From positions 340 through 64,339 of the forward strand of contig JAIMBK010000004.1 of assembly GCA_023511535.1 (NCBI GenBank): 64,000 nucleotides of DNA. Reading direction: 5' to 3'. Below the pieces are notes generated by a model. It did no database searches, was not told the origin of the DNA, and saw nothing but the letters and a program-made list of their open reading frames with translations. Made by a program: the position numbers and the translations under genes. Origin of the DNA: Armatimonadota bacterium. GTDB lineage: Bacteria > Bacillota > Desulfotomaculia > Desulfotomaculales > Nap2-2B. Shown piece after piece: positions 6,112-28,841 of this stretch (within the stretch, counting starts at the first letter, position 1; every line of letters starts with the position of its first letter).

Positions 6112-6145
6112 GGATCAGGCCTTAACTTATCGAAGCGAGTTCAAT

Positions 6146-6171
6146 CCGGAATTCGCTTTAGCGAATTCCGG
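6146..6171 (+). other. Perfect 11-bp stem / 4-nt loop hairpin between the kinase and regulator genes
   Basis: The sequence is CCGGAATTCGC-TTTA-GCGAATTCCGG. No T-tract follows it. The next bases are the CGACGACTG direct repeats at 6178-6200. Confidence 0.6.
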
Positions 6172-6219
6172 CTATCCCGACGACTGACGACCGACGACTG
6201 TTTTCAGGAGGTGTTCCCG

Positions 6220-6894
6220 ATGTCCACCATCAAACTGCTCATCGTCGACGACCACCTGATGATCAGGGAAGGGCTGGTGGCCATGCTCAGTTCTTATCCG
6301 GATCTGCAAATTGCCGGCTCTTGCGAAAGCGCTTTCGAGGCGCTGGAATTTCTCGCCCATACTGTTCCCGACGTGATTTTAATGGACATTAAAATGAAGG
6401 ATAAAAACGGGCTGGACGCCACCCGGGAAATTAAAGCAAAATTTCCCGAGGTCAAAGTGCTCATCCTGACCATCTACGAAGATATGGAGTCGGTCCGGCT
6501 TTCCCTGCAGGCCGGCGCCGCCGGTTACCTCTTAAAGCAGGTTTCCCAGGAAAAACTGGCCGAAAGCATCAAAAGGGTCTACCACGGGGAAACCGTGATC
6601 GACCCTTCCTTAATCGGACAGCTGGTCAACGATTACGCCAAAATGACCCAGGGCTTTTTAACCCAGCTGAAAAGCCGGGTGGAACTTGAAGGCAAGGGCC
6701 TTACGCCCCGGGAAAACGAGGTACTGAAATATCTGGCCCAGGGGCTGACCAACAAGGAAATCTCCAGTAAAACCCATCTGGCCATCGACACCGTCAAGAC
6801 TCACCTGCGGAGCATTTACCGGAAACTGGGGGTAAAAAACCGCTCCCAGGCGATTACCCTGCTGAACAGGCAAAATAAGGCCTTCGAGATTTGA
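6220..6894 (+). CDS. NarL/LuxR-family response regulator (REC + HTH_LuxR)
   Basis: The N-terminus MSTIKLLIVDDH is preceded by an AGGAGG SD 7 nt upstream of the ATG at 6220. The C-terminal LuxR HTH reads LTPRENEVLKYLAQGLTNKEIS. Confidence 0.85.
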   Translation: MSTIKLLIVDDHLMIREGLVAMLSSYPDLQIAGSCESAFEALEFLAHTVPDVILMDIKMKDKNGLDATREIKAKFPEVKVLILTIYEDMESVRLSLQAGAAGYLLKQVSQEKLAESIKRVYHGETVIDPSLIGQLVNDYAKMTQGFLTQLKSRVELEGKGLTPRENEVLKYLAQGLTNKEISSKTHLAIDTVKTHLRSIYRKLGVKNRSQAITLLNRQNKAFEI

Positions 6895-6962
6895 TCAGGG
6901 CTGCCGGATCAGGACCGGCCGGATTTAAGAGCGGCAATTCCCCCGGTCGGTTACAATCACCC

Positions 6963-8156
6963 TCAGGACACCTTGACGACCAGGGCCGCACCGGTATCCC
7001 CGGCCGCACATCCCGTAAACAGCCCGTAACCGCCCCCGAGGATAACCAGCTCTTCAATCATTTCAATAATTCCACGGCCGGCGGTAGGTCCCTGGGGATG
7101 TCCGTAAATAAGTGAAGAACCGTAATTATTGAATTTCATGACGTCAATGTTCATTTCCCGGGCAAGGTATAGATCGTTGGCCGCAAAGGGATTATGCGTC
7201 TTGATAGCCCTGACGTCCCCGATGTCAATCCCCGCTTTTTCCAGCGCCATTCTTGCCGCCGGTACCACGGCCATCGCCATATGAGCCTTGAGGGCGCGGG
7301 CAAAACCATAGGAAACTACCTGTATTTCGATGCTGCTGTCGGCACTGAGTTCCCGCGCTTTTTCCCGGGTGGTTAAAATAATTCCACAGTTGCCGTCGGC
7401 CGGGTGGGTTTGGGCGCCGAATGAGTGTACCCCTCCCTCAATAACCGGTTTCAATCTGGCCAGTCCTTCCCTGGTTGTGGGAACCACGCCTTCGTCCGCT
7501 TCAAGTAACGCGGTTTCTTTTTTGCCCTTTTTATATTCCACGGGAAACATGTAACGCTTCTGGAACTCCCGGTCATTGGCCAGGGCGTCCTGGTACTGCT
7601 CGTAACGTCTATAGGTTACCTCATCGCAGTCTTCTTTGGTAATCCCGCCCACCTTTTTAACCACGTTTTCCGCCGTCTGGATCATGGCGACCCCTCCCCA
7701 GGGATCTTTATTGAAGTTGTCCATCATCCAGTCCTCCGAAATTACCTCCCCGCCGGGACCCATGGGATTGGGCCAGATAGTGTGCGGGCCGTTGGAACAA
7801 CGGTCTGTCATCAGGCAGAATACAGTTTTGTAAAGACCTGTTTCAATGCCCGCCGCTGCCAGACTTATACAGGTGGTGGAGGTGGAACACGCCTGCGGGA
7901 TATGACAGCCGGGAATTTCCGTAGCTCCCATGAGGGCGGCCGCCCAGGGGGCGGCGTAAAAGGTGTGCAGTTGCCCGATGGTTTTCCCCAAATAGAGGTA
8001 TTCAAATATCTTTGCATCCAGATCCTTTGCCGCCAGCCACCTCCTGGCGGTTATCGCCCCTAATTCGATGGCGTTTTCATTTTGCAGGCTCCCCTGCCAG
8101 CGGGCGAAGGGGGAACTGAAGTATCCGCGGTAAGGAATAAATGCTTTTGAGTACAT
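6963..8156 (-). CDS. Thiolase-family acyl-CoA acetyl/acyltransferase
   Basis: The 397-aa ORF has the catalytic Cys context QACSTS and the C-terminal motifs GHPQGPTAG and GCAAGDTG. It is the last gene of the 9-gene operon. Confidence 0.7.
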   Translation of the reverse strand: MYSKAFIPYRGYFSSPFARWQGSLQNENAIELGAITARRWLAAKDLDAKIFEYLYLGKTIGQLHTFYAAPWAAALMGATEIPGCHIPQACSTSTTCISLAAAGIETGLYKTVFCLMTDRCSNGPHTIWPNPMGPGGEVISEDWMMDNFNKDPWGGVAMIQTAENVVKKVGGITKEDCDEVTYRRYEQYQDALANDREFQKRYMFPVEYKKGKKETALLEADEGVVPTTREGLARLKPVIEGGVHSFGAQTHPADGNCGIILTTREKARELSADSSIEIQVVSYGFARALKAHMAMAVVPAARMALEKAGIDIGDVRAIKTHNPFAANDLYLAREMNIDVMKFNNYGSSLIYGHPQGPTAGRGIIEMIEELVILGGGYGLFTGCAAGDTGAALVVKVS

Positions 8157-8175
8157 AAAAATGCCTCCCTATTAA

Positions 8176-8769
8176 TTATTTATTTTTTGCCGTCATTTCC
8201 CGCCCCGCCTGAAAAGCCTTTACGTTCAACTCCTTGAACTTCGGGGGGACCATTTCCTCGATGACGGCCCGCCAGATTTCGACGGGTTCGGCTAAATAAT
8301 TCGATAGGGTGCCGAGCAGCACCACTCCCGCCACGGCCGGGCTGCCCAACTCCCGGGCCTTCGCCGCCCCTTCGACCCAGACCACCCGGGCGCCGGCCTG
8401 GCTTAAGATATCCTCTATTTCCTTTTCTTCCGGATATCTGGCCTGGCCCAGGTTCACTGCGGGGGGCATGATCCGGTGGCGGTTCACCAGGGCCGTCGCC
8501 CCGGGGGCCAGGAAGTGGGGCCAGCGGGCCGCCTCCAGCATTTCAAACCCCAAAAGGTAGTCCGCGCTCCCTTCTTCAATTAAAGGGGAGTAGACCTTTT
8601 CCCCCCAGCGGACGTGGCTCTCCACCGCCCCACCCCGCTGGGACATGCCGTGGACCTCCGACTTTTTCACGGCGTACCCGCAGCGCAGGCCCACTTCCGC
8701 TAAAATATCGCTGGCCAGGATGGTGCCCTGCCCGCCCACGCCGGCAAAGAGAAAGTCGATCTTTTTCAT
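8176..8769 (-). CDS. iorB: Indolepyruvate (arylpyruvate):ferredoxin oxidoreductase beta subunit
   Basis: The 197-aa ORF starts MKKIDFLFAGVGGQGTILASDIL. It lies directly downstream of iorA. Confidence 0.85.
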   Translation of the reverse strand: MKKIDFLFAGVGGQGTILASDILAEVGLRCGYAVKKSEVHGMSQRGGAVESHVRWGEKVYSPLIEEGSADYLLGFEMLEAARWPHFLAPGATALVNRHRIMPPAVNLGQARYPEEKEIEDILSQAGARVVWVEGAAKARELGSPAVAGVVLLGTLSNYLAEPVEIWRAVIEEMVPPKFKELNVKAFQAGREMTAKNK

Positions 8770-8785
8770 CTGTTCACCTCCAAAA

Positions 8786-10534
8786 TCAAGATACCTGGGT
8801 GATGGCGTTCTGGTTGCAGACGGCGGCGCAGAAGCCGCAGCCGATGCACAAAGAGGCGTCGATGGCCACGCCTCCTTCGACTTTGCCGATGGGCGAACAG
8901 CCGATCCGCAGGCAGTTGCCGCATTCGTTGCAAGCTTGAAGATTGACCGTGTAGGGGGCGTGGCGCTCCCTGGTATAGAGCACGCAGGGGTGCCGGGCGA
9001 CGATGACCGAAGGTTCCCCGGATTTAACGTGCTCTTTGATGGTTTCCACCACGTTTTTGAAGTCGTACGGGTCGACCACGTCTATTTTTTTAAAACCGAT
9101 CCCCCGGGCTACTTCTTCCACGCTGATCAGCGGCGCTTCTTCACCCATTAAAGTTTTGCCGCTGCCGGGATGCGGCTGGTGCCCGGTCATGGCCGTGACC
9201 CGGTTGTCTAAAACAATCACGGTGCTCGTGCCCCGGTTGTAAAAAACGTTAATCAAGGGCGCCACGCCGCTGTGGAAGAAGGTGGAGTCGCCGATGACGG
9301 CCACGGTGCGGTCCTTCACCCCGACTTTATCCACGCCGTGCACCACCCCGATGCTCGCCCCCATGCACCCGCAGGTGTGCAGGGCGGAAAGCGGGGGGGC
9401 GGCACCCAGAGTGTAACAGCCGATGTCGCCGAAGGTGGCGGTGCGCAGGCGCTGCAGGGCGTAGAAAACGCCCCGGTGCCCGCAGCCCGGGCAGAGCATG
9501 GGGGGGCGGGCCGGCAGGGCCGGGATAGAAAAGGTTTTCTTTTCTTGCGGAGAAATGAGCCCGGCTTCGGCGGCGCACTGGCGGACCCGGCCGGGGCTGA
9601 ACTCGTAGAGGTTCGGGAAGATGTCTTTCCCGCGGGCGGGAATGCCCAAAAGCCTGACCTGTTCTTCAAGAAAGGGATCCAGTTCCTCGATCACCAAGAC
9701 CTGCTTGACCCGTCCGGCCAGTTCGCGAATTAAACCCGCCGGGAGGGGGTAAACCATCCCCAGTTTTAAAAAAGTGGCGGTGGGGAATACTTCTCTGGCG
9801 TACTGGTAGACGACCCCCGAAGTAATGATCCCGAGCGCACTGTCGCCATCTTCGAGGCAGTTGAAGGGAGCAGTTTCGGCGTAAGCGGCCAGTTTCTTTA
9901 ATCTATCCTCCACCACCGGGTGGCGCGCCCGGGCGTTGGCCGGAACCATCACGTACTTGGCCGGGTTACGCTCGTAAGCCGCCGGTTCGGCCGGGGACGC
10001 CTCCCTCGCCGGTTCTTCCTCCAGGGAAACGACCGCCCGGGAGTGGGACAACCGGGTGGTGGTCCGGATGATTACCGGTGTGTCGAAGGTTTCGCTGATT
10101 TCCACGGCGTATTTTACAAAGCACTTGGCCTCTTCAGCGTCGGCGGGCTCGAGCATGGGCACTTTGGCGAACCGGGCGTAGTGGCGGTTGTCCTGCTCGT
10201 TCTGGGAGCTGTGCAGGCTGGGGTCGTCGGCGTTGACAATCACCAGGCTCCCCTTCATCCCGGTGTAGGCGACGTAAAAGAGGGAATCCGCGGCCACGTT
10301 CAAACCCACGTGCTTCATGGTCACCAGGGCGCGGGCGCCGGCGTAGGCGGCCCCGACGCCCACATCTAAAGCCACTTTTTCGTTGACCGACCACTCCGCG
10401 TAAACCCCCGGGTACCGGGCGAAGTTTTCCAGGATTTCCGTGCTCGGGGTGCCGGGGTAGCCGGCGCCCATTTTGATCCCGGCCAGGTAAGCCCCGTAGG
10501 CGATGGCTTCGTTGCCGGACATGATTTTTTTCAT
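8786..10534 (-). CDS. iorA: Indolepyruvate (arylpyruvate):ferredoxin oxidoreductase alpha subunit
   Basis: The ORF spans 8786..10564. The likely start is the ATG at 10534 (MKKIMSGNEAIAYG), preceded by an AGGTGA SD. It has a TPP-binding region and C-terminal 2x[4Fe-4S] motifs (CNECGNC, CIGCGFC). Confidence 0.85.
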   Translation of the reverse strand: MKKIMSGNEAIAYGAYLAGIKMGAGYPGTPSTEILENFARYPGVYAEWSVNEKVALDVGVGAAYAGARALVTMKHVGLNVAADSLFYVAYTGMKGSLVIVNADDPSLHSSQNEQDNRHYARFAKVPMLEPADAEEAKCFVKYAVEISETFDTPVIIRTTTRLSHSRAVVSLEEEPAREASPAEPAAYERNPAKYVMVPANARARHPVVEDRLKKLAAYAETAPFNCLEDGDSALGIITSGVVYQYAREVFPTATFLKLGMVYPLPAGLIRELAGRVKQVLVIEELDPFLEEQVRLLGIPARGKDIFPNLYEFSPGRVRQCAAEAGLISPQEKKTFSIPALPARPPMLCPGCGHRGVFYALQRLRTATFGDIGCYTLGAAPPLSALHTCGCMGASIGVVHGVDKVGVKDRTVAVIGDSTFFHSGVAPLINVFYNRGTSTVIVLDNRVTAMTGHQPHPGSGKTLMGEEAPLISVEEVARGIGFKKIDVVDPYDFKNVVETIKEHVKSGEPSVIVARHPCVLYTRERHAPYTVNLQACNECGNCLRIGCSPIGKVEGGVAIDASLCIGCGFCAAVCNQNAITQVS

Positions 10535-10703
10535 CTGGTTCACCTGCTTTTTAGAAAATTTCACTAAATAGGTAACCGCAAAGACGCCTGGAACCTAAAT
10601 GAAGTTAAATTATAGAGCAGGCCCCAAATTTCCCGGGCCCAAAGGTACAAAGTCAGTATCCCACAATGCATTTTTCTTTGTGCCTTTGGGCCTCCGGCCT
10701 TCC

Positions 10704-11567
10704 TTACTTTTTCCCGTACGTATACCAGCCCGCCCCGGTTTTCCGGCCCAGGCGGCCGGCCCGGATGAGGGTCTTGAGCGCCAGTGGCGGGTTCCAGCGG
10801 GTATCTTTAAACTCTTCACAGAAGTAGTTGGCCACGTGGTAGCCGATGTCCACCCCGGCAAAGTCCTGCAGTTCGAAAGGCCCCATGGGGTAGTTCAAAC
10901 CAAGCTTCACCGCCGTGTCGATATCCTCGACCGTCGCCACCCCTTCCTCCAACAGGCGGATCGCCTCGATGAACTGGGCCATCAAAACCCGGTTGACAAT
11001 AAAACCGGGGGAGTCTTTCTTTACCTCCACGGTGGTTTTACCCATTTTTTGCGCCACGGCGGAAAGCACCGCGACGGTTTCGTCGCTGGTGGCGTAGCCC
11101 CGGATGATTTCCACCAGTTTCATGATCGGCGGCGGGTTAAAAAAGTGCATCCCGGCAACTTTTTCGGGCCGTTTCGTAGCCGCCGCAATCACCGTGATGG
11201 ACATGGAAGAAGTGTTGGTAGCCAGGAAAGCTTCGGGTTTGCAAATCGCGTCCAGTTTCGCAAAGGCTTCCTTTTTGGCCTGCAGATCCTCGATGATGGC
11301 CTCGATGACCAGATCCGCGCCGGCAAAAGCTTCGCCGATGCCGGTGGCGGTACTGATCCGGCCTAAAACGGCTTCCTTCTGTTCGGGCGTCATTTTCCCC
11401 TTTTCCACGCTTTTGGCCAGAAAATCGTTCATTCGCCCGAGCGCCCGGTCGACAATTGCTTTGTCTACATCGCTTAACACAACGTCAAACCCCGCGGCGG
11501 CCGCCACCTGGGCAATCCCTCCCCCCATGGCGCCGGCACCCAAAACACCAATTTTTTTGACTTCCAT
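10704..11567 (-). CDS. hbd: NAD-dependent 3-hydroxyacyl-CoA (3-hydroxybutyryl-CoA) dehydrogenase
   Basis: The 287-aa ORF has the Rossmann motif GVLGAGAMGGGIA, plus NTSS and the C-terminal domain PMGPFEL. Confidence 0.85.
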   Translation of the reverse strand: MEVKKIGVLGAGAMGGGIAQVAAAAGFDVVLSDVDKAIVDRALGRMNDFLAKSVEKGKMTPEQKEAVLGRISTATGIGEAFAGADLVIEAIIEDLQAKKEAFAKLDAICKPEAFLATNTSSMSITVIAAATKRPEKVAGMHFFNPPPIMKLVEIIRGYATSDETVAVLSAVAQKMGKTTVEVKKDSPGFIVNRVLMAQFIEAIRLLEEGVATVEDIDTAVKLGLNYPMGPFELQDFAGVDIGYHVANYFCEEFKDTRWNPPLALKTLIRAGRLGRKTGAGWYTYGKK

Positions 11568-11644
11568 GAAAACTTTCGCCTCCCCTTTCGTCTTATTAAT
11601 CAGTTATTTTCTCCGGTTCCGCCTGTTTATCCTCCTGGCCCGCC

Positions 11645-12844
11645 TTACGCCCTCTTTTGCAGCTGTTCAAAAAAGATCGAGAACTTCCATCGGATTTGTT
11701 CCTCGGTAAAATACCGCTGATCGGCCATGTCCGCTTCGAAGACGATCCCTGGCAGGCCGGTGCGCTCCGAAATTATTTTCTGCTTATCGTAGAGGCCGAA
11801 GGACGTCGGCTTGCAGCTCCGGTTGGAAAACAAAACGAAGCCGTCCACTTTATACTTTTTCATCATGTCTATTTTCAGCTGAACGCGGTAGTCAAAACCC
11901 CGGTTGACGAACTGTTCGGTGTAAGTTTCCGCCATGCTTTCCAGAGGCCTTTCCAGGTCGAAACGGTGGGTCCAGGAATGGGTGTACTGGGAAACGGCCA
12001 CCAGGGCGCCGTTTTCCGCAAACAGCTCGGCGAACCAGCGCAGCCGCGGCCAGACCGGGAGGTGGTCCCAGTAGATTTTAAAGCGCTCGTTGGGCACAGC
12101 GGAAATCTTTTTCTCGATTCTTTCTTCCAGTTCCTTCTTTAATTCCCGGTAATAAGCAACGGCGGCCGGGGTGCCCCGCAGCGTAACGATCGGCGCCATG
12201 TGAAAACAGGCGTCGAAAAAGCCGAAAGGGGCCGGTGTGAGCGCCGCCGTTTCGAGAATTTCGTTCCACAGGCGGCAGGCCTCGTTGGCCAGGGCCAGCA
12301 CCTCGAGCAACCGGTCAAAATCGAACTGTCTTCCCGTATACACTTCGATAAAATCAATCATTTCCTCCATCTGCTCGACGAAATACCTTTTGATTAAGGT
12401 CGTCGATGCCCCCTCGATGAAGGGCGCGTCCAGCAAAAAGTAAGGAACCCGGTAAAAACGGCCCGCCTCCTCGAACCATTTCTGCAGGCTGCCGCACTGG
12501 GTATTGCAGCTGAAGACGAGATCGGGCCGGACGATTTCCCCCACCGGGTGTTCTTTTGCATAGGCGTCGCCCAGGCCGCAGCGGGCGTAGCCGCAAAGAT
12601 CGGCGTAGTAACCGCGCGCTTCCGCAGCGGCGGACAGCTTTTCGGTGACTTTCCGGGCCGCCGCCAGGGCGCCGAAGTTTTCCGGGTAATACGGGAAAAG
12701 CCCGGCGGCGTAGACGATTTCCACCGGAAAAACAGCCGTCACCCAGACCACCGGGACGCCGCGCTCTTTGGCCTGCGCGCCCTGAGCGTAGTAATCGGCC
12801 ATAATCTCTTTTAGCCGGCCGGCGTTGCGAAAAGGCGTCGCCAT
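11645..12844 (-). CDS. 2-hydroxyacyl-CoA dehydratase / benzoyl-CoA reductase BcrB-C family (HGD-D) subunit
   Basis: The 399-aa ORF has the family's typical length and Cys pattern (LCGYARCG, CNTQCG, SCKP). It is paired with the upstream paralogue. Confidence 0.7.
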   Translation of the reverse strand: MATPFRNAGRLKEIMADYYAQGAQAKERGVPVVWVTAVFPVEIVYAAGLFPYYPENFGALAAARKVTEKLSAAAEARGYYADLCGYARCGLGDAYAKEHPVGEIVRPDLVFSCNTQCGSLQKWFEEAGRFYRVPYFLLDAPFIEGASTTLIKRYFVEQMEEMIDFIEVYTGRQFDFDRLLEVLALANEACRLWNEILETAALTPAPFGFFDACFHMAPIVTLRGTPAAVAYYRELKKELEERIEKKISAVPNERFKIYWDHLPVWPRLRWFAELFAENGALVAVSQYTHSWTHRFDLERPLESMAETYTEQFVNRGFDYRVQLKIDMMKKYKVDGFVLFSNRSCKPTSFGLYDKQKIISERTGLPGIVFEADMADQRYFTEEQIRWKFSIFFEQLQKRA

Positions 12845-12887
12845 TTATTTTGCCTCCTCCAGATAAATAATTCGGGGGACATCATAC

Positions 12888-14081
12888 TCAATTAGCTGCG
12901 TCCAGCATTTCTATAAAGGCCCCGATCCTCGTCCTGATCTGCCCTAAAGACTCACTGCCCACCTCTGTCTCGACCCTTAAGGAGGGTATTCCGGCGGCGT
13001 TGAGGGTTTCCTCCAGGAAGGGGTAATCGTAATTCTCCGGCTCGCAAAACTTTAAATGAACGAAGATCACGCCGTTCGCCCCCGTCTCCCGGACCTTGCG
13101 CAGCAGAAAGTCCGGCCGGTCCTGTTTCTTATTGGTAAAACAGGCCGCCGCCACCCGCGTCAGCTGCCGCTCGGCCAGGGCTACGTAGGGATCGCCGTTC
13201 TCCGCCGCGTCGCCGGTGATGTACCGGTACCCGGTGCAAAGGTCGTCGCCGACGCAGACGGCTCCCGCCTCGTCTAAAATATCCAGCAAAGCCGGCGGCT
13301 CCCCCAGTTTACCGCTCAAGATTACCCGCACTCTGGTTTTGGCCTTTCCGGACTTTTGCTTCCCGGCCTCCTGCTCCAGGGCGCCGAGCAGCCGGTCCGC
13401 CAGCAGGTTGTGCTCTTCCTTGGGGAGGATCAAAGATGACTTGATGACGTCGTACACCGCCCGGTTGCCGAGCAAATCCGGGCAGCGGACGTGAAAATCG
13501 TAAAGCCGCCGCAAAAGGGCGCGGTTGCGGTTGTACAGGCGGATACTGTTCTGCAGGTCCGCGGCTGTAATTTTCCGGTCGGTAAACTGCTCCAGCCGGG
13601 CCTTCAAGCGCCCCATTTCACCCAGCAGGTAATTTTTAGCGCTGGGGCGGTCCAGCTGCCTGGGCAGCAGGAAAGCTTCCATGAAATTAAAGGGCCGGAC
13701 TTTTTTCCAGATGGTATAAACCGTTCTGGTCGTATCACAAATCGTCGGGACAATCAATCCCTGCAAAAAATCGAGCTTTCCGGCCAGCGCCATCCCAAAC
13801 GCGCACCGGATCAGCGAACAGGCCCACATCTGCAGGTGCGCGTTCGCCCGGTTGATTTGCCCTCCGTCGTAGGCAACCACCCCGAAGGGGTAGGCCCCTG
13901 CCGCGTGCACCAGTTCTTCCGGAACGTCAGTAGGCAAATGGCCGACCACCCGGACGATTTTTTCCGCCGCAATTCTTTTCACTGCCGGGGCGGGATCGCT
14001 TAAAACGCTTTGCAGTTCACCGAGGATTTTTTTGCTGTTCGGCATTGCTTTTCCGGCTCCGGGAGACCCCAGAACCGTCAC
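12888..14081 (-). CDS. 2-hydroxyacyl-CoA dehydratase / BcrB-C family (HGD-D) subunit, second component
   Basis: The 397-aa ORF starts at a GTG with an AAGGAG SD 6 nt upstream. Motifs include ICDTTR, DDLCTGYRY and KFCEP. Confidence 0.7.
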   Translation of the reverse strand: MTVLGSPGAGKAMPNSKKILGELQSVLSDPAPAVKRIAAEKIVRVVGHLPTDVPEELVHAAGAYPFGVVAYDGGQINRANAHLQMWACSLIRCAFGMALAGKLDFLQGLIVPTICDTTRTVYTIWKKVRPFNFMEAFLLPRQLDRPSAKNYLLGEMGRLKARLEQFTDRKITAADLQNSIRLYNRNRALLRRLYDFHVRCPDLLGNRAVYDVIKSSLILPKEEHNLLADRLLGALEQEAGKQKSGKAKTRVRVILSGKLGEPPALLDILDEAGAVCVGDDLCTGYRYITGDAAENGDPYVALAERQLTRVAAACFTNKKQDRPDFLLRKVRETGANGVIFVHLKFCEPENYDYPFLEETLNAAGIPSLRVETEVGSESLGQIRTRIGAFIEMLDAAN

Positions 14082-14102
14082 CCAGGCTCCTTTCCAGCGC
14101 GT

Positions 14103-15680
14103 TTATCCGGACCCGGCCTGTTTTTCCCGGAGCTTCCGGTGGAGAATTTTCCCCGTCGGCGTGCGGGGCATTTCATCGTCGGAGATAAAATCCACCGCCC
14201 GGGGCCGCTTATAATCCGCTATTTTTCCCCGGCAAAACGCCATAATCTCCCCGGCCAGCGCTTCGTCCGGGGAATATCCCTGGCGCAGCACGACCACCGC
14301 TTTGACCATTTCCCCCCACTTGACGTCCGGCACGCCGATGACGGCCACGTCCTTGACGGCCGGGTGTTTGGCCACGACGGCTTCCACCTCCGAGGGGTAA
14401 ATATTTTCGCCCCCGGAAATGATCATGTTTGCCTTGCGGTCCACCAGGTAGTAATACCCTTCCGGGTCTCTCCTGGCCATATCCCCTACGGTGCACCATT
14501 CCCCCCGGAAAGCTTCCCTGGTTTTTACGGGATCTTTCCAGTACTCCTTAAACGTAGCGGGCGAACGGGTATAAAGCTCGCCCACTTCCCCGTCGGGCAC
14601 CTCGTTGCCGTTTTCGTCCAGCAGTTTGATCTGGTCGATACCAAAGATCTCTTTGCCGATGGAACCCAGCTTTTTAAACTGGTCTTCCGGGCGCAGGTAG
14701 GTGATTAAGCCGGCTTCCGTGGAGCCGTAAGCCTCCCACAGCTCCGCGGACTTAAAGAAATCCATGATGGCCAGCTTCAAATCTTCCCGGGCCGGCGCCG
14801 AAGAAATCAAAAGCTGTCTGATGCTGCTGACGTCGTATTTGCGCTTCACCGCCTCGGGCAGGGACAAAATCATCACGTAATGGGTGGGTACCAGGGAAGT
14901 AAAGGTCACCTTAAATTCACTGATTGTTTTCAGCAGATCCTCCGGATCGAAACTGATCAGGTTATAAACCATCACCGGGGCGCCTACGTAAGTATAGGCA
15001 AAAGAGTAATACGTCGAATTGACGTGGCACATGGGCATGACCATCAGCGTTTTATCGGTCGGCCGGACGCCCATGTTGATATTGCTCAACAGGTACTGCC
15101 CCAGGTAACTTTCGTGGGTGCGCACAACCCCCTTGGGGCGGCCGGTGGTGCCGGAGGTATACATGATTACCCAGGGGTCCGCCGCGTCTACCATCACCGC
15201 CGGTTCTCCCGGATCGCCCCCCCTGAGCACATCTTCATAATGTACATACCCGGCAGGAGCCTCACCTTCCCCCAGGTAGATAAAATTCCCCTCCCCAACG
15301 GTGGGGAGTTTTTCCCGCACGGCATTCACTTTTTCGACGAGGGGCTCCTCCACAATAAAAACCTTGCTTTCGGAGTGATTGATAATATATTCAATCTCGG
15401 GAGGAGCCAGGCGGAACATCACCGGCACCGTAATCTGCCCGCCCTTGGCACAGGCGGCGTAAATCTCCATCCATTCCACCCGGTTGTAGGCCAGGACCGC
15501 CACCCGCTCGCCGTAACCCGCGCCCATCCCGGTCAGCGCGTTGGCCAGGCGGCAGGAACGCTCGTTCCACTCGCGAAAGGTAAAGCTTTTATATTTATCC
15601 TGGCACCCCAGGCGTTCCGGGTAGTTGCGGGCGTTCATTTTGAGCACGGTTCCGACGGTCATCCATTTACTGATCGTCAT
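14103..15680 (-). CDS. AMP-forming acyl-CoA ligase (ANL superfamily), substrate unknown
   Basis: The 525-aa ORF has the AMP-binding motifs YTSGTTGRPKGV, GDMARRDPEGYYYLVDRK and PRTPTGKI. Confidence 0.8.
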   Translation of the reverse strand: MTISKWMTVGTVLKMNARNYPERLGCQDKYKSFTFREWNERSCRLANALTGMGAGYGERVAVLAYNRVEWMEIYAACAKGGQITVPVMFRLAPPEIEYIINHSESKVFIVEEPLVEKVNAVREKLPTVGEGNFIYLGEGEAPAGYVHYEDVLRGGDPGEPAVMVDAADPWVIMYTSGTTGRPKGVVRTHESYLGQYLLSNINMGVRPTDKTLMVMPMCHVNSTYYSFAYTYVGAPVMVYNLISFDPEDLLKTISEFKVTFTSLVPTHYVMILSLPEAVKRKYDVSSIRQLLISSAPAREDLKLAIMDFFKSAELWEAYGSTEAGLITYLRPEDQFKKLGSIGKEIFGIDQIKLLDENGNEVPDGEVGELYTRSPATFKEYWKDPVKTREAFRGEWCTVGDMARRDPEGYYYLVDRKANMIISGGENIYPSEVEAVVAKHPAVKDVAVIGVPDVKWGEMVKAVVVLRQGYSPDEALAGEIMAFCRGKIADYKRPRAVDFISDDEMPRTPTGKILHRKLREKQAGSG

Positions 15681-15822
15681 AACCCACCCCTCTTTTTTTT
15701 CAAAAAGATTTTTCTCCCGGTAAGCTTAAATATAGACAAATCGAGGACTTATTCCTATCGCTAAAAAGGATGGAAACCAGGTTATTTTCGCAAGCGGCGG
15801 AGTTAACCCTTTCGTTTGAAAC

Positions 15823-17130
15823 TCAATTCCTGTCTTTCTTCCGTTTGTCCAGCACGCGCACGGCCTTCCCCTCGAAGCGCTGCAGGCTGCCGCAGGGCAC
15901 CAGGACCACCTTGCAGGTGATTTCCAGGTAGCTGTGCAGTTCCTTTTCCAACCGGTTAACAAACTCTTCGCCCGGTTCCGCCCCGGGGACGGGCTCCACC
16001 TGAACCTCCAGGGTGTGCAAACCTTTGCGCTCTCCCACCACCAGCAGCCAGTTTTCGCTTAACTCCGCATGTTTCAGTAAAACGTGCTCGATTTGACTGG
16101 GAAAAACGTTGGTGCCGCTGACCAAAAGCATATCGTCCACGCGCCCTAAAAATTTCACGATCCGGGGATGGGTCCGCCCGCAGGGGCAGGGAGAAAAGTC
16201 CACGATCACCCGGTCCCCGGTCCGGTAGCGCAGGATGGGCATGGCTTCAAAACTTAAATTACTCAGCACCAGTTCCCCCGGTGTCCCCGGCGGAACATCC
16301 TGCAGCGTCTCCGGATCGAGCACCTCCACCAGGTAATGATCCGCCCAGATGTGAATCCCCGTCACGGATTCGCAATCCATGGCCATCGGCCCGCCCATTT
16401 CCGTCAAGCCGTACACGCGCCGCATCCCGCCGCCGTGGGCGGTATACCCCAGGCGTTCGTTGATGCGCGCCCGCATCTCGTCGGAACAGGGCTCGCCGCC
16501 GTGAAAACCGAGCCGGAGCTTTAAATCTTTCCCCGGATCGATCCCTTTTTCCCGGGCCACTTCGCTGACGTAGACCGCGTAGGTAGGCGTACAGGTAAAA
16601 ACCGTGGTGCCCCACTCCCGCATTAAACGCAGCTGCCTTTCGGTCCCGCCGGCGCCGGTGGGAATTACCTTGGCGCCGATTTCCTCCAGGGCATAATGAA
16701 AACCGAAGCCCCCGGTGAAAAGGCCGTAACCGTGGGCCTGTTGCACAATATCCCCTTTTTGCAGCCCGCCGGCGGTAAAATTCCGGGCCATCAGACGGCT
16801 CCAGGTGCGCAGGTCGTTTTTCGTATAAACCATGGCCACCGGCACCCCCGTGGTGCCGGAAGTCATGTGCACCCGCACCACCTCGTCCCAGTTCCCGCTG
16901 ATGAGACCCAGGGGATAACCGTCCCGAAGGTCCTTTTTGGTGACAAAAGGAACGCCTTTGATGTCGCCCAGGGTTTTAATGTCTCCAGGATGAATCCCGG
17001 CTTCGTCAAAACGCTTCTTCAAGAATGGGTTTTGATAGACCCGCTGCGCCTGTTGCTTAAATTTTTCCAGCTGGACCGCCGCCAGTTTTTCCAAGGGCAT
17101 GGTTTCCCATTCTTGCTCGTAAAAAGCCAA
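15823..17130 (-). CDS. paaK: Phenylacetate-CoA ligase family protein
   Basis: The 435-aa ORF has MTSGTTGVPV, PaaK-type length and the C-terminal ACT-like tail (KAVRVLDKR). Confidence 0.8.
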   Translation of the reverse strand: MAFYEQEWETMPLEKLAAVQLEKFKQQAQRVYQNPFLKKRFDEAGIHPGDIKTLGDIKGVPFVTKKDLRDGYPLGLISGNWDEVVRVHMTSGTTGVPVAMVYTKNDLRTWSRLMARNFTAGGLQKGDIVQQAHGYGLFTGGFGFHYALEEIGAKVIPTGAGGTERQLRLMREWGTTVFTCTPTYAVYVSEVAREKGIDPGKDLKLRLGFHGGEPCSDEMRARINERLGYTAHGGGMRRVYGLTEMGGPMAMDCESVTGIHIWADHYLVEVLDPETLQDVPPGTPGELVLSNLSFEAMPILRYRTGDRVIVDFSPCPCGRTHPRIVKFLGRVDDMLLVSGTNVFPSQIEHVLLKHAELSENWLLVVGERKGLHTLEVQVEPVPGAEPGEEFVNRLEKELHSYLEITCKVVLVPCGSLQRFEGKAVRVLDKRKKDRN

Positions 17131-17322
17131 ACACTCCTACCCCCTCGAAAGTAGTGGATTCACTGCAGCCATAAACAATCATGCCCTCCCAATAATACCC
17201 TAATTATAACACATCACCAAAAAAGTTGAGGCGCACTGGCCTCGCATTTCCCAGCACGCCCTCCGGCAGGCCTCCCTTCCCCAAAAAAACCGGCATTTTC
17301 CCCGGACCAAAAAACGATCATC

Positions 17323-18891
17323 CTAACTCTTCTTTTCGATGTATTTTTTGCGCAGCAGGGCTTTTTGCAGTTTGCCGGTCGGGTTGCGCGGCACATCGGA
17401 GAAAACGACTTTTTCCGGCCACTTGTACCGGGCCAACCCCTGTTCCTTGCAAAACTGCACCACTTCTTCCTCGCTCATCGTTTCCCCCGGGTGCAGCTGA
17501 ATAACCGCCATGGCTATTTCCACCAGGCGCTCGTGCGGATAGCCGATGACCGCCACGTCGGCAATTTTCGGGTGGCGGTGCAGCACTTCCTCAATTTCTA
17601 CCGGGTAAATATTTTCGCCGCCCCTGATGATCAGATCCTTCTTCCGGTCAACAATGTACACGTAGCCGTCCTCGTCCTGCCGGACCAAATCACCGGTGTG
17701 AAGCCAGCCGTCTTTAATTGTCTGGGCGGTCATGGCGGGGTTTTTGTAATATTCCTTCATGATCCGGGGCCCCTTCAGGAGCAACTCGCCCACTTCACCC
17801 ACCGGGACGTCGTTTCCCTGCTCGTCCACAACGCGCGCCTCCACGTTAAAGGTCGGTTTGCCGATGGAACCCGGCCTGCTCAGCACATCTTCGTCGTACA
17901 GGTTAAAACTGCCGCCGCCCCCGCCTTCGGTAATCCCGTAAATGTTGCCCGTCTTGAAGGGGAAAATTCGCTTCATATCCTGGAAGAGCGTATAGGGAAC
18001 CGGCTGTGCACCGATGACAATGTTGCCGGTAACGTGGGAAAAATCGTACTTGCTGATGTCAATCTCGCCCCGCTTGATGGCGTTCACCGAATCGGACATG
18101 GTGGGAACGGTAACCCAGCCGTTGTTGACCTTTTCTTCGGCGATGGCGTCCAGCAGGTAACGCGGGTCGGAGAGTTCCCGCAGGATAACGATCTTGCCCC
18201 CGGCCAGGTAGGAAGGGAAGGACAGGAAAAAGCTGCCGCTGTGATAAAAGGGGTGGGGGGCCAGGTAAACGGTTTCGTGGCCTTCGCTGTAGGCCAGGGC
18301 ACAGCTGAGCCCGACGTTGTATAAAGTGCTGTGCGCCTGGCAAACGGGCTTCGGGTCGCCCGTGGTTCCGGAGGTAAACATCAGCTCTGCCGGGTCGTCG
18401 TCGGCCACGTCGACCAATACGTCCTCCGGGCTGCCGGCTTCGATGATCTTCGCGTAGGAAATCATGTCCGCGGGAACTTCTTTGCCGATGCAGATATAAT
18501 TACGGATCGAGGGCATTTCGCCTTGAATGGGCTGCACTTTGGGCAGAAATCCTTCTTCCAGAATAAAAGCCACGGGCTGGCAGGCCTCCGCCGCAAACTT
18601 GATGTCTGCACTGGCGAAACGGAAGTTGAGCGGCACCGCCACCGCCCCTATTCTTAAAATGGCGTGGAAAGTAACCACCCACTCCAGGCTGTTCATTTGG
18701 AGGTGGAGGACAAAGTCCCCCTTTTTAATGCCCAGTTCCTTTTGCAGGTAATTAGCCACCCGGTTGGTGTCCTCGTTGAACTCTTTCCAGGTCATGACCC
18801 GCCGCAAACCTTTCGAAGGCGTCCGCTCAATTAAAAAATCTTTCTGCGGGTACTTCTTTGCATTAATAATGCCGTAACGGGCAAAATTCAT
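17323..18891 (-). CDS. AMP-forming acyl-CoA ligase (ANL superfamily), substrate unknown; first gene of the operon
   Basis: The 522-aa ORF has FTSGTTGDPKPV, GDLVRQDEDGYVYIVDRKKD and PRNPTGKL. Confidence 0.8.
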   Translation of the reverse strand: MNFARYGIINAKKYPQKDFLIERTPSKGLRRVMTWKEFNEDTNRVANYLQKELGIKKGDFVLHLQMNSLEWVVTFHAILRIGAVAVPLNFRFASADIKFAAEACQPVAFILEEGFLPKVQPIQGEMPSIRNYICIGKEVPADMISYAKIIEAGSPEDVLVDVADDDPAELMFTSGTTGDPKPVCQAHSTLYNVGLSCALAYSEGHETVYLAPHPFYHSGSFFLSFPSYLAGGKIVILRELSDPRYLLDAIAEEKVNNGWVTVPTMSDSVNAIKRGEIDISKYDFSHVTGNIVIGAQPVPYTLFQDMKRIFPFKTGNIYGITEGGGGGSFNLYDEDVLSRPGSIGKPTFNVEARVVDEQGNDVPVGEVGELLLKGPRIMKEYYKNPAMTAQTIKDGWLHTGDLVRQDEDGYVYIVDRKKDLIIRGGENIYPVEIEEVLHRHPKIADVAVIGYPHERLVEIAMAVIQLHPGETMSEEEVVQFCKEQGLARYKWPEKVVFSDVPRNPTGKLQKALLRKKYIEKKS

Positions 18892-19163
18892 TATTTTTCC
18901 TCCTTGCCTGACTAAAAAATAATTTTTCTGAACTCTTGGTTGATTATTTTCTTAATTTCCTTTTTTAGTATTTCCAGCCTCCTTTCCGGATGCAGCCAAA
19001 CAGGCTCGACTTTTCAGCCAGGATTAAATATTGGTGCCTTAATGATTTGCGTTACAATTCCTACTCTTTTATATTAAAATAAAAGTATAGTAGAAAAAAT
19101 ACCCCTAAAGAATGAAACAAAAAAATCCACGGGTGAAACTTGGGCTAACCTTCTTGGTGGAAA

Positions 19164-19727
19164 TTAGACAAGGTTTTTATGCATGGCATAAGCGATAAAG
19201 AGGTTCTTCCGGTTCTCATGCTGCTGAAAAAATTCTCTTTCCCCGGCACTGGTAAAATTATACCCCTGCTTTAGCCAGAAATTAACAGCACTATGTTCGG
19301 CCGGGACGGATATCGTCCGGATACCCACCTGCCTCCCCAGCTTTTCAATTTTTTTCACCACCTGCGCGCCGGCCCCCCGCCCGCGGAAGACAACGGGCAG
19401 GTTTAAGTAATGGACGACACAGACCCCGGCCCCGTAATCGTATTCCAGATCAAGGAGAAACTCCTCGCTGAAAGGGGGAACATTTTTATTATAAAAACGG
19501 TTTTTCAGTTCGGCATACCTGCCCACAATCACCTTTTCCGGCGCTTCGCCCCGGCCTGGCTGCCCTTTGCCCGCTGTTTCCCCGTCCTTCGGCCGGCCAA
19601 GGAAAAGAACGCTGAAAGTACTGGCCGACTGGTTAATTTCTTCACTGATCAGAAAGACATTTAACCGCCCCTGAAAAAAAGCTTCCAGTTCTTCCCGTAA
19701 ATTCAGGAACAATTCGATCCGGGTCAA
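19164..19727 (-). CDS. GNAT-family N-acetyltransferase-like protein
   Basis: The 187-aa ORF has a motif A-like segment VVFRGRGAGAQVVKKIEKLGRQVG. The N-terminal half shows no similarity I can recognise. Confidence 0.45.
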   Translation of the reverse strand: MTRIELFLNLREELEAFFQGRLNVFLISEEINQSASTFSVLFLGRPKDGETAGKGQPGRGEAPEKVIVGRYAELKNRFYNKNVPPFSEEFLLDLEYDYGAGVCVVHYLNLPVVFRGRGAGAQVVKKIEKLGRQVGIRTISVPAEHSAVNFWLKQGYNFTSAGEREFFQQHENRKNLFIAYAMHKNLV

Positions 19728-19937: not shown

Positions 19938-20942
19938 ATGACCAACGCAGGGCAGCAGGACGTGACTACGGTTTTAATCATCCAGGAAGAGGCGCACCGG
20001 TATGCAAAAATGATCGAAGAAGCTTTCCCGGAAGAAGTCAAAACGGGTAAAATCAAATTAATTCCGTGCGTCGACGAGCGGGAAATTCCAGAGGACGTCA
20101 GTAACGTCAACATCGTCGGTACGTGGCCACTGGTAAAGCAGGTTCCGCAAATGAAAAATCTGAAGTGGGTGATGACCTTCAGTTCGGGGATCGACCACTG
20201 GGAAAAGGCAAATCTTTTGCCGCGGGAAATTCCGTTAATTCATTTGCCCGGCGGCTCGGGTATCCCGGTGGCGGAATTTGTCATCGGCCTGATGCTCAAC
20301 CACGTCAAATATTACAATCAAATTTGGGACAACCAGAAACAACGCAAATACCAGCGCCTGCAGGGCAAGGAACTTTACGGGAAGACCCTGGGAATTATCG
20401 GTCTGGGCGGGATCGGCCGGCAAATCGCCAAAAGGGCGAAAGCCTTCGATATGTACGTAATCGGCTCGGAAATTCAAATTATCGACGTTCCGTTTGTCGA
20501 TAAGGTTTATTTAAGCCAAGATTGCGAGGAAATATTGAAGATCAGCGATTTTGTAGTGCTCTCCTGCCCGGAAACGCCCGAAACCATCAACATGATGAAT
20601 GAAGAACGATTTAAAATGATGAAGCCGACCGCCTATTTTATCAACTGTGCCCGGGGCTCCCTGGTGGTGAAGGAAGCCCTGATCAAGGCGCTGAACGAGG
20701 GCTGGATCGCTGGGGCGTCCATCGATACCCACTGGATTAAGAATCCGCTGCCTTCGTACCTTCCTCCCGACGACCCGCTGTGGGACGCCAAAAACGTTTT
20801 CATCTCGCCCCACATCTCCAGCTGGACGGACATGTACGCACCACGCTTCGGGGCGGTCTTCGTCGAGAATATCCGGCGCTACCTGCAGGACGAGCCGCTG
20901 ATCCACGTGGCCCCCGGATTTGGAGTGAAGACGGAAAAGTAA
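19938..20942 (+). CDS. D-isomer-specific 2-hydroxyacid dehydrogenase (NAD-binding)
   Basis: The 334-aa ORF has GKTLGIIGLGGIGRQIAKRA, a CARG segment and SPHISSWT. Confidence 0.8.
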   Translation: MTNAGQQDVTTVLIIQEEAHRYAKMIEEAFPEEVKTGKIKLIPCVDEREIPEDVSNVNIVGTWPLVKQVPQMKNLKWVMTFSSGIDHWEKANLLPREIPLIHLPGGSGIPVAEFVIGLMLNHVKYYNQIWDNQKQRKYQRLQGKELYGKTLGIIGLGGIGRQIAKRAKAFDMYVIGSEIQIIDVPFVDKVYLSQDCEEILKISDFVVLSCPETPETINMMNEERFKMMKPTAYFINCARGSLVVKEALIKALNEGWIAGASIDTHWIKNPLPSYLPPDDPLWDAKNVFISPHISSWTDMYAPRFGAVFVENIRRYLQDEPLIHVAPGFGVKTEK

Positions 20943-21079: not shown

Positions 21080-21122
21080 TGCCTTTGTCCTTTGTTCCTT
21101 TGTCTCTTGTGCCTTTGTGCCT
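21080..21122. repeat. Tandem 7-8 nt units of the TGCCTTTG family
   Basis: The units read TGCCTTTG TCCTTTG TTCCTTTG TCTCTTG TGCCTTTG TGCCTAA. The last unit contains the dctM stop codon. Confidence 0.8.
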
Positions 21123-22907: not shown

Positions 22908-23094
22908 AAGTTCCTCGGTGCACCTCCCCTAGCCCGGTCCGGCCCGATCAAGCTTCAACCTTAAGCAAACAGGAAGGGGCACAACGCCTGAGGCACAATT
23001 TTAAGAACATCGGCGCTGTACCCCGAGCCCTGCTGCAGCGAAGCCTGGTCTTAATCCGGCTTAAATTTATGCTCCTGTCCTTGCCGTATTTTGC

Positions 23095-28839: not shown

Positions 28840-28841
28840 CA

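Follow-up and report, generated by a model that had tools for sequence, protein, structure and literature searches.

How would a strictly anaerobic bacterium use genes for arylpyruvate oxidation, 2-hydroxyacyl-CoA dehydration and beta-oxidation that lie together on one strand? Nine such genes form a cluster at positions 6963 to 18891 of a 64,000-nucleotide stretch (the window) of contig JAIMBK010000004.1 (assembly GCA_023511535.1, positions 340 to 64,339 of the forward strand), from a genome named as an Armatimonadota bacterium and classified by GTDB in the Desulfotomaculia. 2-Hydroxyacyl-CoA dehydratases are known from the reductive branches of amino-acid-fermenting Clostridia; to our knowledge, little is established about how sulfate reducers, syntrophs and other strict anaerobes dispose of phenylalanine-derived acids. 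We propose, with a probability of roughly 0.55, that the nine genes, a divergent dehydrogenase gene, a convergent two-component system and carboxylate transporter genes on the 5' side form a catabolic gene cluster found in strictly anaerobic Bacillota. It would shorten the side chain of C6-C3 2-oxo and 2-hydroxy aromatic acids without oxygen or alpha-oxidation, converting phenylpyruvate- and phenyllactate-type acids to benzoyl-CoA along with acetyl-CoA via radical dehydration followed by beta-oxidation. If this is true, dehydratases have been recruited together with a ligase that substitutes for a CoA-transferase and feed beta-oxidation into the benzoyl-CoA pathway, which is a new role for them. 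Functional statements throughout are predictions from sequence and gene neighborhood.

The proposed route, with steps drawn from family membership and genomic context, would begin with the D-2-hydroxyacid dehydrogenase, which would interconvert arylpyruvate and (R)-aryllactate. The second of two FadD-like ligases (ligase 2) would then convert aryllactate to aryllactyl-CoA at the expense of ATP; a ligase would take the place of the fermenters' CoA-transferase because the CoA ester is carried forward on the product and not recycled. Following activation with one electron by an ATPase of the BcrAD/HgdC type whose gene lies outside the window, a heterodimer of two HGD-D (PF06050) subunits, alpha and beta, each with one three-Cys [4Fe-4S] site, would carry out a ketyl-radical dehydration to a cinnamoyl-type (arylacrylyl-) enoyl-CoA. 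A crotonase, present in orthologous clusters and not in the window, would hydrate this product at C3 to 3-hydroxy-3-arylpropionyl-CoA, Hbd would oxidize it to aroylacetyl-CoA, and the thiolase would cleave the latter to aroyl-CoA (benzoyl-CoA) and acetyl-CoA. The hydroxyl group would thus shift from C2 to C3, making beta-cleavage possible, and the route would be redox neutral, since the NADH consumed by the first dehydrogenase is regenerated by Hbd. IorAB and the PaaK-like ligase would link the arylpyruvate pool with arylacetyl-CoA and arylacetate, as a ferredoxin-reducing side branch in the oxidative direction or as part of a linear route from phenylacetate to benzoyl-CoA in the reductive direction. 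Benzoyl-CoA could enter a BamB-type reductase encoded 4.5 kb away.

The gene combination is conserved and is not due to chance. One genome per species was scanned for related loci, and the genes of the 80 loci returned were labeled by BLAST against the window proteins and Pfam-checked seed proteins. Forty-eight loci with an alpha-subunit identity of at least 50% constitute clade A. Within 10 kb, they encode IorA (38 loci), IorB (34), the D-2-hydroxyacid dehydrogenase (33), ligase 2 (32), ligase 1 (25, with orthologs 69 to 86% identical), an SCP-x thiolase (23), DUF35 (19), a PaaK-like ligase (18, orthologs ~70% identical), Amidohydro_2 (18), the enoyl-CoA hydratase or crotonase (ECH; 17), a short-chain dehydrogenase/reductase (SDR; 16), Hbd (14) and an activator of the BcrAD_BadFG family (7); a two-component pair adjoins the cluster in 15 to 17 loci, and TRAP, SSS or MFS transporter genes recur as well. 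That the HGD-D pair keeps recurring partners across 48 Bacillota loci agrees with the preliminary description of the window, which had treated the nine genes as an operon and had outlined the route from aryl-lactate to benzoyl-CoA. Given the frequency of the dehydrogenase and ligase 2 and the presence of beta-oxidation genes, this route is the best-supported one; the aromatic nature of its substrate rests on the hints discussed below, and the route does not account for IorAB and PaaK.

Gene order is also informative. In most of its loci, IorA immediately follows HGD-alpha on the 3' side, at a distance of a few tens of bases; the dehydrogenase is usually directly 5' of the HGD-D pair; and ligase 2 adjoins HGD-beta or the dehydrogenase in many of its loci, as in the order HADH-LIG2-(ACT)-HGDb-HGDa of L048 and L056. 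The nearest complete relative, a Desulfovirgula sp. metagenome-assembled genome (MAG) with 85% identity (L005), has the order LIG1-PAAK-LIG2-HGDb-HGDa-HBD-ECH-IorA-IorB, and the most complete version, HADH-LIG2-HGDb-HGDa-HBD-ECH-IorA-IorB-THL, is found in L048 and L049, with thiolases 80 to 85% identical to that of the window. Clade A hosts are labeled Desulfotomaculia/Peptococcaceae, "Syntrophomonadaceae" soda-lake MAGs, Dethiobacteria and Moorellales. Two clade A contigs (L041 and L048) belong to one Spirochaetia-labeled MAG, and several others are labeled Desulfovibrio or Desulfovibrionaceae; these odd labels may reflect binning errors or horizontal transfer.

Alpha homologs were found in Bacillota MAGs and in Desulfoscipio (Desulfotomaculum) gibsoniae, where the cluster occupies about 1,427,400-1,440,600 of CP003273. 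It runs from a response regulator, a histidine kinase and an XylR_N/V4R regulator through the 2-hydroxyacid dehydrogenase, HGD-D beta and HGD-D alpha to IorA, IorB, a PaaK-like ligase, an SSS symporter, a second PaaK-like ligase, a GNAT-like protein, Hbd and ECH. Because D. gibsoniae is a cultured and sequenced isolate, the predictions made here are directly testable. The preliminary description had not recognized the combination as a described operon, and we likewise found no description of the cluster in the full-text literature searched, nor is it mentioned in the genome paper on D. gibsoniae (PMC4148979).

Pfam and NCBIfam profile searches recovered all nine genes on the minus strand, in the families that had been named (Table 1). 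None of them overlap, contrary to what had been said of some; the gaps in transcription order are 192, 142, 21, 43, 77, 139, 16 and 19 bp, and cotranscription is plausible. Since all nine open reading frames (ORFs) are on the minus strand, the unit has its 5' end at 18891. A promoter/terminator scan for transcription units gave a signal no better than chance. IorA is the sole cluster protein above an equivalog cut-off (711.6 versus 650.9 bits), and its start is placed 10 codons later in a gene call on an identical contig; IorB falls just below its own (229.3 versus 237). The PaaK-like ligase scores 399 against a cut-off of 700 for NF041878 and 377 against 646 for TIGR02155, the PaaK equivalogs, and can therefore be called only at the family level, as are both FadD-like ligases, Hbd and the thiolase.

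Central to the route is the class of the HGD-D enzyme, encoded by two adjacent paralogous PF06050 genes. Among solved structures, alpha is closest to HadB of Clostridioides difficile (3o3m_A; 1.9e-62, 215 bits versus 133 for BzdO and 128 for MbdO) and beta is closest to HadC (3o3m_B; 2e-50, 175 bits versus 143 and 139 in the same comparison, with BzdN at 1e-40). HadB and HadC are also the best NCBIfam matches, at scores far below the equivalog cut-offs (260 versus 750 and 221 versus 700). Cys84, Cys117 and Cys344 of alpha, invariant in 82 homologs, align with the HadB cysteines, and Cys88, Cys115 and Cys346 of beta, invariant in 76 homologs, align with those of HadC. The YPEN motif of alpha (residues 53-56), again invariant in 82 homologs, is of the HadB type. 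The position of His131 of benzoyl-CoA reductase (BCR; BzdO numbering) is Leu120 in the window alpha and Leu in all 49 clade members, and the Glu of the BCR His131/Glu65 pair is conserved.

The double-cubane ligands of BzdN are Cys36/73/100/263/293/327 (PMC11971306). Four of these six have a Cys counterpart in the window beta; the positions of Cys36 and Cys293 map by alignment to Pro50 and Ala312, and the third distal ligand is kept as Cys282, where only 7 of 47 clade A members have Cys. Clade A thus has a dehydratase-like, single-cubane architecture that apparently arose from double-cubane relatives. Neighbor-joining (NJ) with bootstrapping, run for both subunits with HadB, Bzd, Mbd and DCCP sequences among the references and with some distances saturated, recovered clade A as a distinct lineage (46/50 for alpha and 31/50 for beta).

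Taken with the context, the scores, Cys sites, YPEN motif and Leu120 favor a dehydratase. The context argues in the same direction because a D-specific dehydrogenase, a ligase and, in L056, in-cluster activators accompany the pair. D-specific dehydrogenases yield the (R)-2-hydroxy acids used by HgdAB, HadBC and FldBC, and we propose that the HGD-D pair performs ketyl-radical dehydration of an (R)-2-hydroxyacyl-CoA.

Ligase 1, at 425 bits to NCBIfam PRK06187 (cut-off, 476) and with FadD5, FadD13 and feruloyl-CoA synthetase as its nearest solved structures, is predicted to be an AMP-forming, FadD-like acyl-CoA ligase of the feruloyl- or anthranilate-CoA-ligase-like class; cinnamate, phenylpropionate and benzoate are candidate substrates. 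Ligase 2, encoded directly 5' of the dehydratase genes, is proposed to be an (R)-2-hydroxyacid (aryllactate)-CoA ligase standing in for the usual CoA-transferase. The earlier suggestion of a ligase in the place of a transferase is upheld as to gene content, with no CoA-transferase among the ORFs scanned in the window and ligase 2 in the right position, while the substrate of ligase 2 is an assignment from context.

Beta-oxidation, rather than an acyl-CoA dehydrogenase with Etf, is supported as the conserved sequel of the HGD-D pair. Three nonorthologous gene sets alternate at the same cluster position in clade A: Hbd, ECH and a classical thiolase (L018, L048 and L049); Hbd, ECH, an SCP-x thiolase and DUF35 (L005, L016 and L023); and SDR, SCP-x thiolase, DUF35 and Amidohydro_2 (L012, L014, L020 and others). 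Where the Hbd ortholog is missing, an SDR takes its place, and outside the four loci with thiolase orthologs 74 to 95% identical to the window's (L018, L036, L048 and L049), an SCP-x thiolase and DUF35 are found. Among the loci examined, L018 alone has an acyl-CoA dehydrogenase gene, and the locus flanks scanned with Pfam showed no Etf gene. The divergent thiolase of the window scores 175 bits against TIGR01930 (cut-off, 240) and keeps the Cys/His/Cys triad when aligned with 4e1l_A, with HNPF for the NEAF motif; we propose that it cleaves aroylacetyl-CoA.

Several hints point to an aromatic substrate: IorA passes its equivalog cut-off, a PaaK-like ligase is encoded, some relatives, D. gibsoniae included, carry XylR_N/V4R regulators (L002 and L013), many loci have Bbs-like SDR/SCP-x/DUF35 sets, BamB lies nearby, and the substrate range fits in D. 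gibsoniae, a carrier of the cluster that grows on many aromatic acids, including phenylacetate (PMC4148979).

A number of observations weigh against the proposed route, the first being its incompleteness in the window. The preliminary description had noted that the operon lacks an enoyl-CoA hydratase, and this extends to the whole 64 kb, so that Hbd and thiolase are present without a crotonase; the source genome must then carry its hydratase gene at some other place. The gene is nevertheless present in orthologous clusters (L005, L016, L048, L049 and others), lying between Hbd and IorA in L005, L048 and L049, and it has been lost from this position in the window and in L036 (93% identity). Likewise, no ATP-dependent activator (BcrAD_BadFG) was detected in the 64 kb by Pfam on plausible ORFs of at least 130 amino acids (aa) or by tblastn with 42 seeds (best E value, 0.056), and, as noted, few clade A loci have one nearby. 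L005 retains between the kinase and M24 peptidase genes a 207-aa ORF with only a C-terminal fragment of the activator family (31 bits). Both tandem units of L056 include an activator gene, one apiece, and L018, L033 and L038 have tandem activator gene pairs; the enzyme class is therefore activator dependent in at least some members, and the activator of the source organism is presumably encoded elsewhere in its genome. Clade A would then be a lineage of the BCR/HAD radical enzymes that has lost the distal half of the double-cubane site and, in most genomes, the neighboring activator gene.

Other observations leave the enzyme class or the substrate less certain. The alpha identity to HadB is 32%, against 28 to 29% to BzdO/MbdO, and the NJ nodes joining clade A to HadB, Bzd, Mbd or DCCP were unsupported. 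The three-Cys beta site was rejected as decisive evidence of a dehydratase: the distal cysteines are missing from MbdN too, so such a site is not exclusive to dehydratases. The top NCBIfam matches of ligases 1 and 2 are generic fatty-acid-CoA ligase models, below their cut-offs, so these scores are silent on substrate; the solved structures nearest to the ligases, dehydrogenase and thiolase are similarly generic (FadD5, FadD13, feruloyl- and anthranilate-CoA ligases, glyoxylate reductases and acetoacetyl-CoA thiolases). Neither ligase 1 nor ligase 2 is encoded nearby in the D. gibsoniae subgroup, which carries two PaaK-like ligases instead; the assignment of ligase 2 to aryllactate draws on gene adjacency in the remaining subgroups. 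The route as written could do without IorAB and PaaK. Lastly, an AOR (BamB) gene adjoins the cluster in none of the 48 related loci, being specific to this window; we therefore gave BamB adjacency less weight as pathway evidence. Of the earlier proposal that the route feeds a class II benzoyl-CoA reductase, what remains is a genuine BamB ortholog nearby in this one window.

All parts of the cluster belong to known families, and the Fld and Had systems of Clostridia are its closest analogs. In C. difficile, hadBC is accompanied by genes for the HadA CoA-transferase, the HadI activator and the AcdB acyl-CoA dehydrogenase. Despite the resemblance to HadBC in structure match, three Cys ligands per subunit and YPEN, the low alpha identity and subthreshold scores set the HGD-D pair apart, and the cluster has no counterparts of HadA, HadI or AcdB. 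The Clostridium sporogenes system consists of the FldA CoA-transferase, FldBC dehydratase, FldI activator and FldH dehydrogenase (Dickert et al. 2002, cited by PMC13416013). By predicted function, the cluster is like Fld in joining a D-2-hydroxyacid dehydrogenase to a heterodimeric PF06050 dehydratase that would act on an arylpyruvate-derived (R)-2-hydroxyacyl-CoA, with cinnamoyl-CoA as the proposed product. It differs in having an AMP-forming ligase where Fld has a CoA-transferase, in the absence of a nearby activator gene, in sending the enoyl-CoA to Hbd and thiolase rather than to reduction by acyl-CoA dehydrogenase/Etf, in the inclusion of IorAB and in its sulfate-reducing or syntrophic Bacillota hosts.

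The second half of the route also has precedents. Beta-oxidation of cinnamoyl-CoA to benzoyl-CoA is known from plants, from EncHIJ of Streptomyces maritimus and from phenylpropanoid degradation in Aromatoleum. A hydratase, a 3-hydroxyacyl-CoA dehydrogenase and a thiolase yield benzoyl-CoA and acetyl-CoA there as they would here, but those systems start from cinnamate, made by phenylalanine ammonia-lyase (PAL) or taken up, and then ligated, whereas here cinnamoyl-CoA would come from radical dehydration of phenyllactyl-CoA. The one related idea in the literature searched comes from a 2026 paper on a benzene degrader, which hypothesizes the sequence phenylpyruvate, phenyllactyl-CoA, cinnamoyl-CoA, benzoyl-CoA (PMC13416013). 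The Pad pathway of Thauera and Aromatoleum (PadJ, PadBCD, PadEFGHI), also listed for D. gibsoniae in PMC4148979, likewise begins with a PaaK/PadJ-type ligase and ends with benzoyl-CoA, but oxidizes the alpha-carbon with a molybdenum enzyme and loses C1 as CO2; no such genes occur here, where the use of phenylacetate would add one carbon via IorAB and then remove two.

That last possibility, degradation of arylacetates by C1 elongation with the whole cluster as one linear pathway, is the rival that survives best, although we consider it unlikely. PaaK would activate phenylacetate; IorAB, running in reverse with reduced ferredoxin, would reductively carboxylate phenylacetyl-CoA to phenylpyruvate; the dehydrogenase would pull the reaction by way of phenyllactate; and ligase 2, the dehydratase, a hydratase, Hbd and the thiolase would lead to benzoyl-CoA and acetyl-CoA. 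IOR-type enzymes of rumen bacteria and methanogens are known to carboxylate phenylacetate reductively, yielding phenylpyruvate. Arylacetates cannot be beta-oxidized directly, and alpha-oxidation by PadBCD/PadEFGHI requires a high-potential acceptor; elongation would be a new anaerobic arylacetate route that bypasses this molybdenum-dependent chemistry in low-potential anaerobes. It is the sole scheme that places every conserved gene in one pathway, and it would account for the closeness of IorA to HGD-alpha in most loci, the co-occurrence of PaaK-like ligases with the cluster (in D. gibsoniae they flank the SSS symporter), the lack of an aminotransferase or a phosphotransacylase/kinase in the cluster and the growth of D. 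gibsoniae on phenylacetate. Its cost, on the other hand, would be two AMP-forming activations plus reduced ferredoxin, a PaaK gene within 10 kb is lacking in about one-third of the full-length loci that carry IorAB, and the direction of the oxidoreductase is not readable from sequence. Moreover, the D. gibsoniae genome paper lists PadBCD, PadEGHI and PadJ (PMC4148979); if that annotation is right, this organism does not require a second phenylacetate route.

The preliminary description had offered as its alternative a Stickland-type module for aromatic amino acids; such a fermentation, its end products being excreted, is less well supported than the aryllactate route and, in our view, quite improbable. 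In the oxidative branch, IorAB would form arylacetyl-CoA and PaaK, in reverse, arylacetate; in the reductive branch, the dehydrogenase, ligase and dehydratase would form arylacrylyl-CoA, to be reduced to arylpropionate. The 2-hydroxyacid dehydrogenase, HGD-D pair and 2-oxoacid:ferredoxin oxidoreductase are core families of the C. sporogenes and C. difficile pathways, and some hosts (for example, Dethiobacter and the soda-lake MAGs) are not known as degraders of aromatic rings. However, the window lacks a family III CoA-transferase as well as an activator, Pfam scans found no acyl-CoA dehydrogenase/Etf or enoate reductase in it, and the single acyl-CoA dehydrogenase among the related loci examined contrasts with the conserved Hbd or SDR, crotonase and thiolase; an ATP-consuming ligase would also be wasteful for fermentative recycling.

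Slightly less probable still is the same chemistry on an aliphatic 2-hydroxy acid, with IorAB acting on the matching aliphatic 2-oxo acid: leucine-derived 2-hydroxyisocaproate, for example, would give isocaprenoyl-CoA and then isobutyryl-CoA and acetyl-CoA, and lactate and 2-hydroxybutyrate are further candidates. The nearest characterized enzyme is HadBC of the leucine pathway, the ligases score best against fatty-acid models, and Hbd and thiolase are generic. Yet IorA passes the equivalog cut-off for indolepyruvate oxidoreductase and not the VOR, KOR or POR models, identity to HadB is low, and the PaaK-like ligase, the XylR_N/V4R regulators of L002 and L013, the Bbs-like SDR, SCP-x thiolase and DUF35 sets of many loci and the adjacent BamB all speak against an aliphatic substrate.

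With class I BCRs (BzdNOPQ/MbdONQP; PDB 8s02 and 9g87; PMC11971306), the pair shares the PF06050 fold family and the three-Cys [4Fe-4S] site of the O/alpha subunit, but its six-Cys double-cubane site is incomplete, it has no His131 equivalent or ATPase subunits, and its scores are lower. That the pair is an ATP-driven reductase or dehydroxylase of the BCR/DCCP family acting on a ligase-made aryl-CoA is very improbable: it would fit the mere 3 to 4 percentage points by which alpha is nearer to HadB than to BzdO/MbdO, the three-Cys site of MbdN, the tandem ATPase genes (257 and 291 aa, reminiscent of BzdPQ) of L018, L033 and L038, and the six-Cys double-cubane-type beta and adjacent ATPase of sister clade B, but the ATPase subunits, which BCRs need stoichiometrically, are absent from 41 of 48 loci, and Leu at the His131 position, the HadB-type YPEN, the profile scores for HadB and HadC and the constant linkage to a D-2-hydroxyacid dehydrogenase are all at odds with it.

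Clade B comprises 33 loci (L053-L084 range), mostly from Desulfobacterota, with identities of 41 to 48%. An activator lies directly downstream in 29 of the 33, and IorAB is found in only 3 or 4; given this near-constant activator and rare IorAB, clade B is a different system. Its unit consists of HGD-beta, HGD-alpha and BcrAD_BadFG, as at 8412-12057 of L063 or, in Desulfosarcina widdelii, at about 4.32 Mb of NZ_AP021875 (L070). The beta subunit has Cys at all six BzdN double-cubane positions in 27 of 29 sequences, and alpha keeps the HadB-type YPEN without His131. This three-gene unit, apparently uncharacterized, looks like a hybrid of dehydratase and BCR/DCCP architectures.

The genes around the cluster (Table 1) are those named in the preliminary description, but its "upstream" and "downstream" followed plus-strand coordinates: by transcription, the dehydrogenase and transporters are on the 5' side and BamBC is on the 3' side, together with the kinase/regulator pair and an M24 peptidase gene. 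The BamBC-like genes were correctly recognized, the AOR being a genuine BamB ortholog over its full length with the Fer4 protein adjoining; they are the catalytic module of a class II benzoyl-CoA reductase and are context, not a conserved part of the cluster. Any BamD-I genes must be located beyond the window. The histidine kinase and LuxR-type regulator are likely to control the cluster, and the TRAP, SSS and MFS genes are predicted to serve carboxylate uptake. GNAT homologs lie within the clusters of L002, L009, L013 and L016, with ligase genes as neighbors in the last three and in D. gibsoniae; as a guess, the window protein may be a Pat-like lysine acetyltransferase controlling the AMP-forming ligases. 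An NCBIfam scan gave no specific or substrate-level names for the transporters, kinase, GNAT protein or M24 peptidase, and no crotonase, SDR, DUF35, Amidohydro_2 or XylR-type regulator was found in the window. Rfam searches for riboswitch or T-box leaders that might name a substrate (gathering thresholds and E <= 0.1) returned only tRNA-Leu and tRNA-Sec.

Table 1. Genes of the cluster and its neighbors, with positions in the window and the profile or structure matches behind each name
Feature	Position	Strand	Match
Ligase 1	17323-18891	minus	Pfam AMP-binding, 252 bits
PaaK-like ligase	15823-17130	minus	Pfam AMP-binding and AMP-binding_C_2
Ligase 2	14103-15680	minus	Pfam AMP-binding, 283 bits
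HGD-D beta (HadC-like)	12888-14081	minus	PF06050, 297 bits
HGD-D alpha (HadB-like; predicted catalytic [4Fe-4S] subunit)	11645-12844	minus	PF06050, 254 bits
Hbd (NAD-dependent 3-hydroxyacyl-CoA dehydrogenase)	10704-11567	minus	3HCDH_N, 220 bits; 3HCDH, 125 bits
IorA (arylpyruvate:ferredoxin oxidoreductase alpha)	8786-10564	minus	TIGR03336, 711.6 bits
IorB (beta subunit)	8176-8769	minus	PF01558, 118 bits; NF005322, 229 bits
Divergent thiolase	6963-8156	minus	Thiolase_N, 65 bits; Thiolase_C, 68 bits
D-isomer-specific 2-hydroxyacid dehydrogenase	19938-20942	plus, divergent	2-Hacid_dh_C, 179 bits
GNAT acetyltransferase	19164-19727	minus, 272 bp 5' of ligase 1	Acetyltransf_1 (weak Pfam match)
GAF/HisKA_3 histidine kinase	4432-6111	plus, convergent with operon	Pfam
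LuxR-type response regulator	6211-6894	plus, convergent with operon	Pfam
TRAP DctM, DctQ, DctP	21121-24363	minus	Pfam
SSS symporter	24430-26079	minus	Pfam
MFS transporter	26706-28052	minus	Pfam
BamB	556-2517	minus	4z3w_A, 1030 bits, full length
BamC-like ferredoxin	24-578	minus	Fer4 matches

Positions 6931-7005, which overlap the 3' end of the thiolase gene, hold a 25-codon remnant (76% identical) of a hexapeptide-repeat transferase gene that in L036 comes after the thiolase. A 357-bp gap at 4075-4431 corresponds to the site of the decayed activator fragment in L005. The remnant and the gap suggest that genes were recently lost at the cluster's 3' edge.

Among the related loci, the thiolase of L048 (15343-16536) is 85% identical to that of the window, whereas HGD-D alpha of the same locus is only 57% identical, a difference suggesting that lineages have exchanged modules of the cluster. 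In L056, the two tandem units, each of the order HADH-LIG2-activator-HGDbeta-HGDalpha (5316-19432), are split by IorAB, and genes for a biotin carboxylase and a carboxyltransferase come before them; having two units may mean two substrate specificities. In L033 (17463-21191) and at the same position of L038, ligase 2 is followed by a GntR/FCD regulator and a PFL-like glycyl-radical enzyme truncated where the locus ends. The glycyl-radical class includes arylacetate decarboxylases, and this gene may be another link to arylacetates.

Elsewhere in the window, genes at 33682-36604 (minus) encode LarC (Ni_insertion, 499 bits), a LarB-like AIR carboxylase and a LarE-like ATP-pyrophosphatase; LarA was not seen in the window. 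LarB, LarC and LarE serve the nickel-pincer cofactor on which LarA-type 2-hydroxyacid racemases depend, and the dehydratase route could obtain its (R)-isomer from a racemase for phenyllactate or lactate encoded elsewhere in the genome. A lactate utilization block occupies 56087-63858 (minus), with LUD-domain proteins, a CCG/Fer4 protein, an FAD-linked oxidase and a lactate permease. A siroheme-dependent (Ahb-type) heme biosynthesis cluster at 40677-50990 (minus) includes two radical-SAM/SPASM genes as well as NirDL-like regulators, and the tRNA-Sec gene lies at 52866-52963 (plus). The 3.5 kb at 28100-31600, with a G+C content of 45 to 50%, no ORF longer than 107 codons, no notable repeats and tRNA-Leu(GAG) at 28669-28751, could be the remnant of an integrated element.

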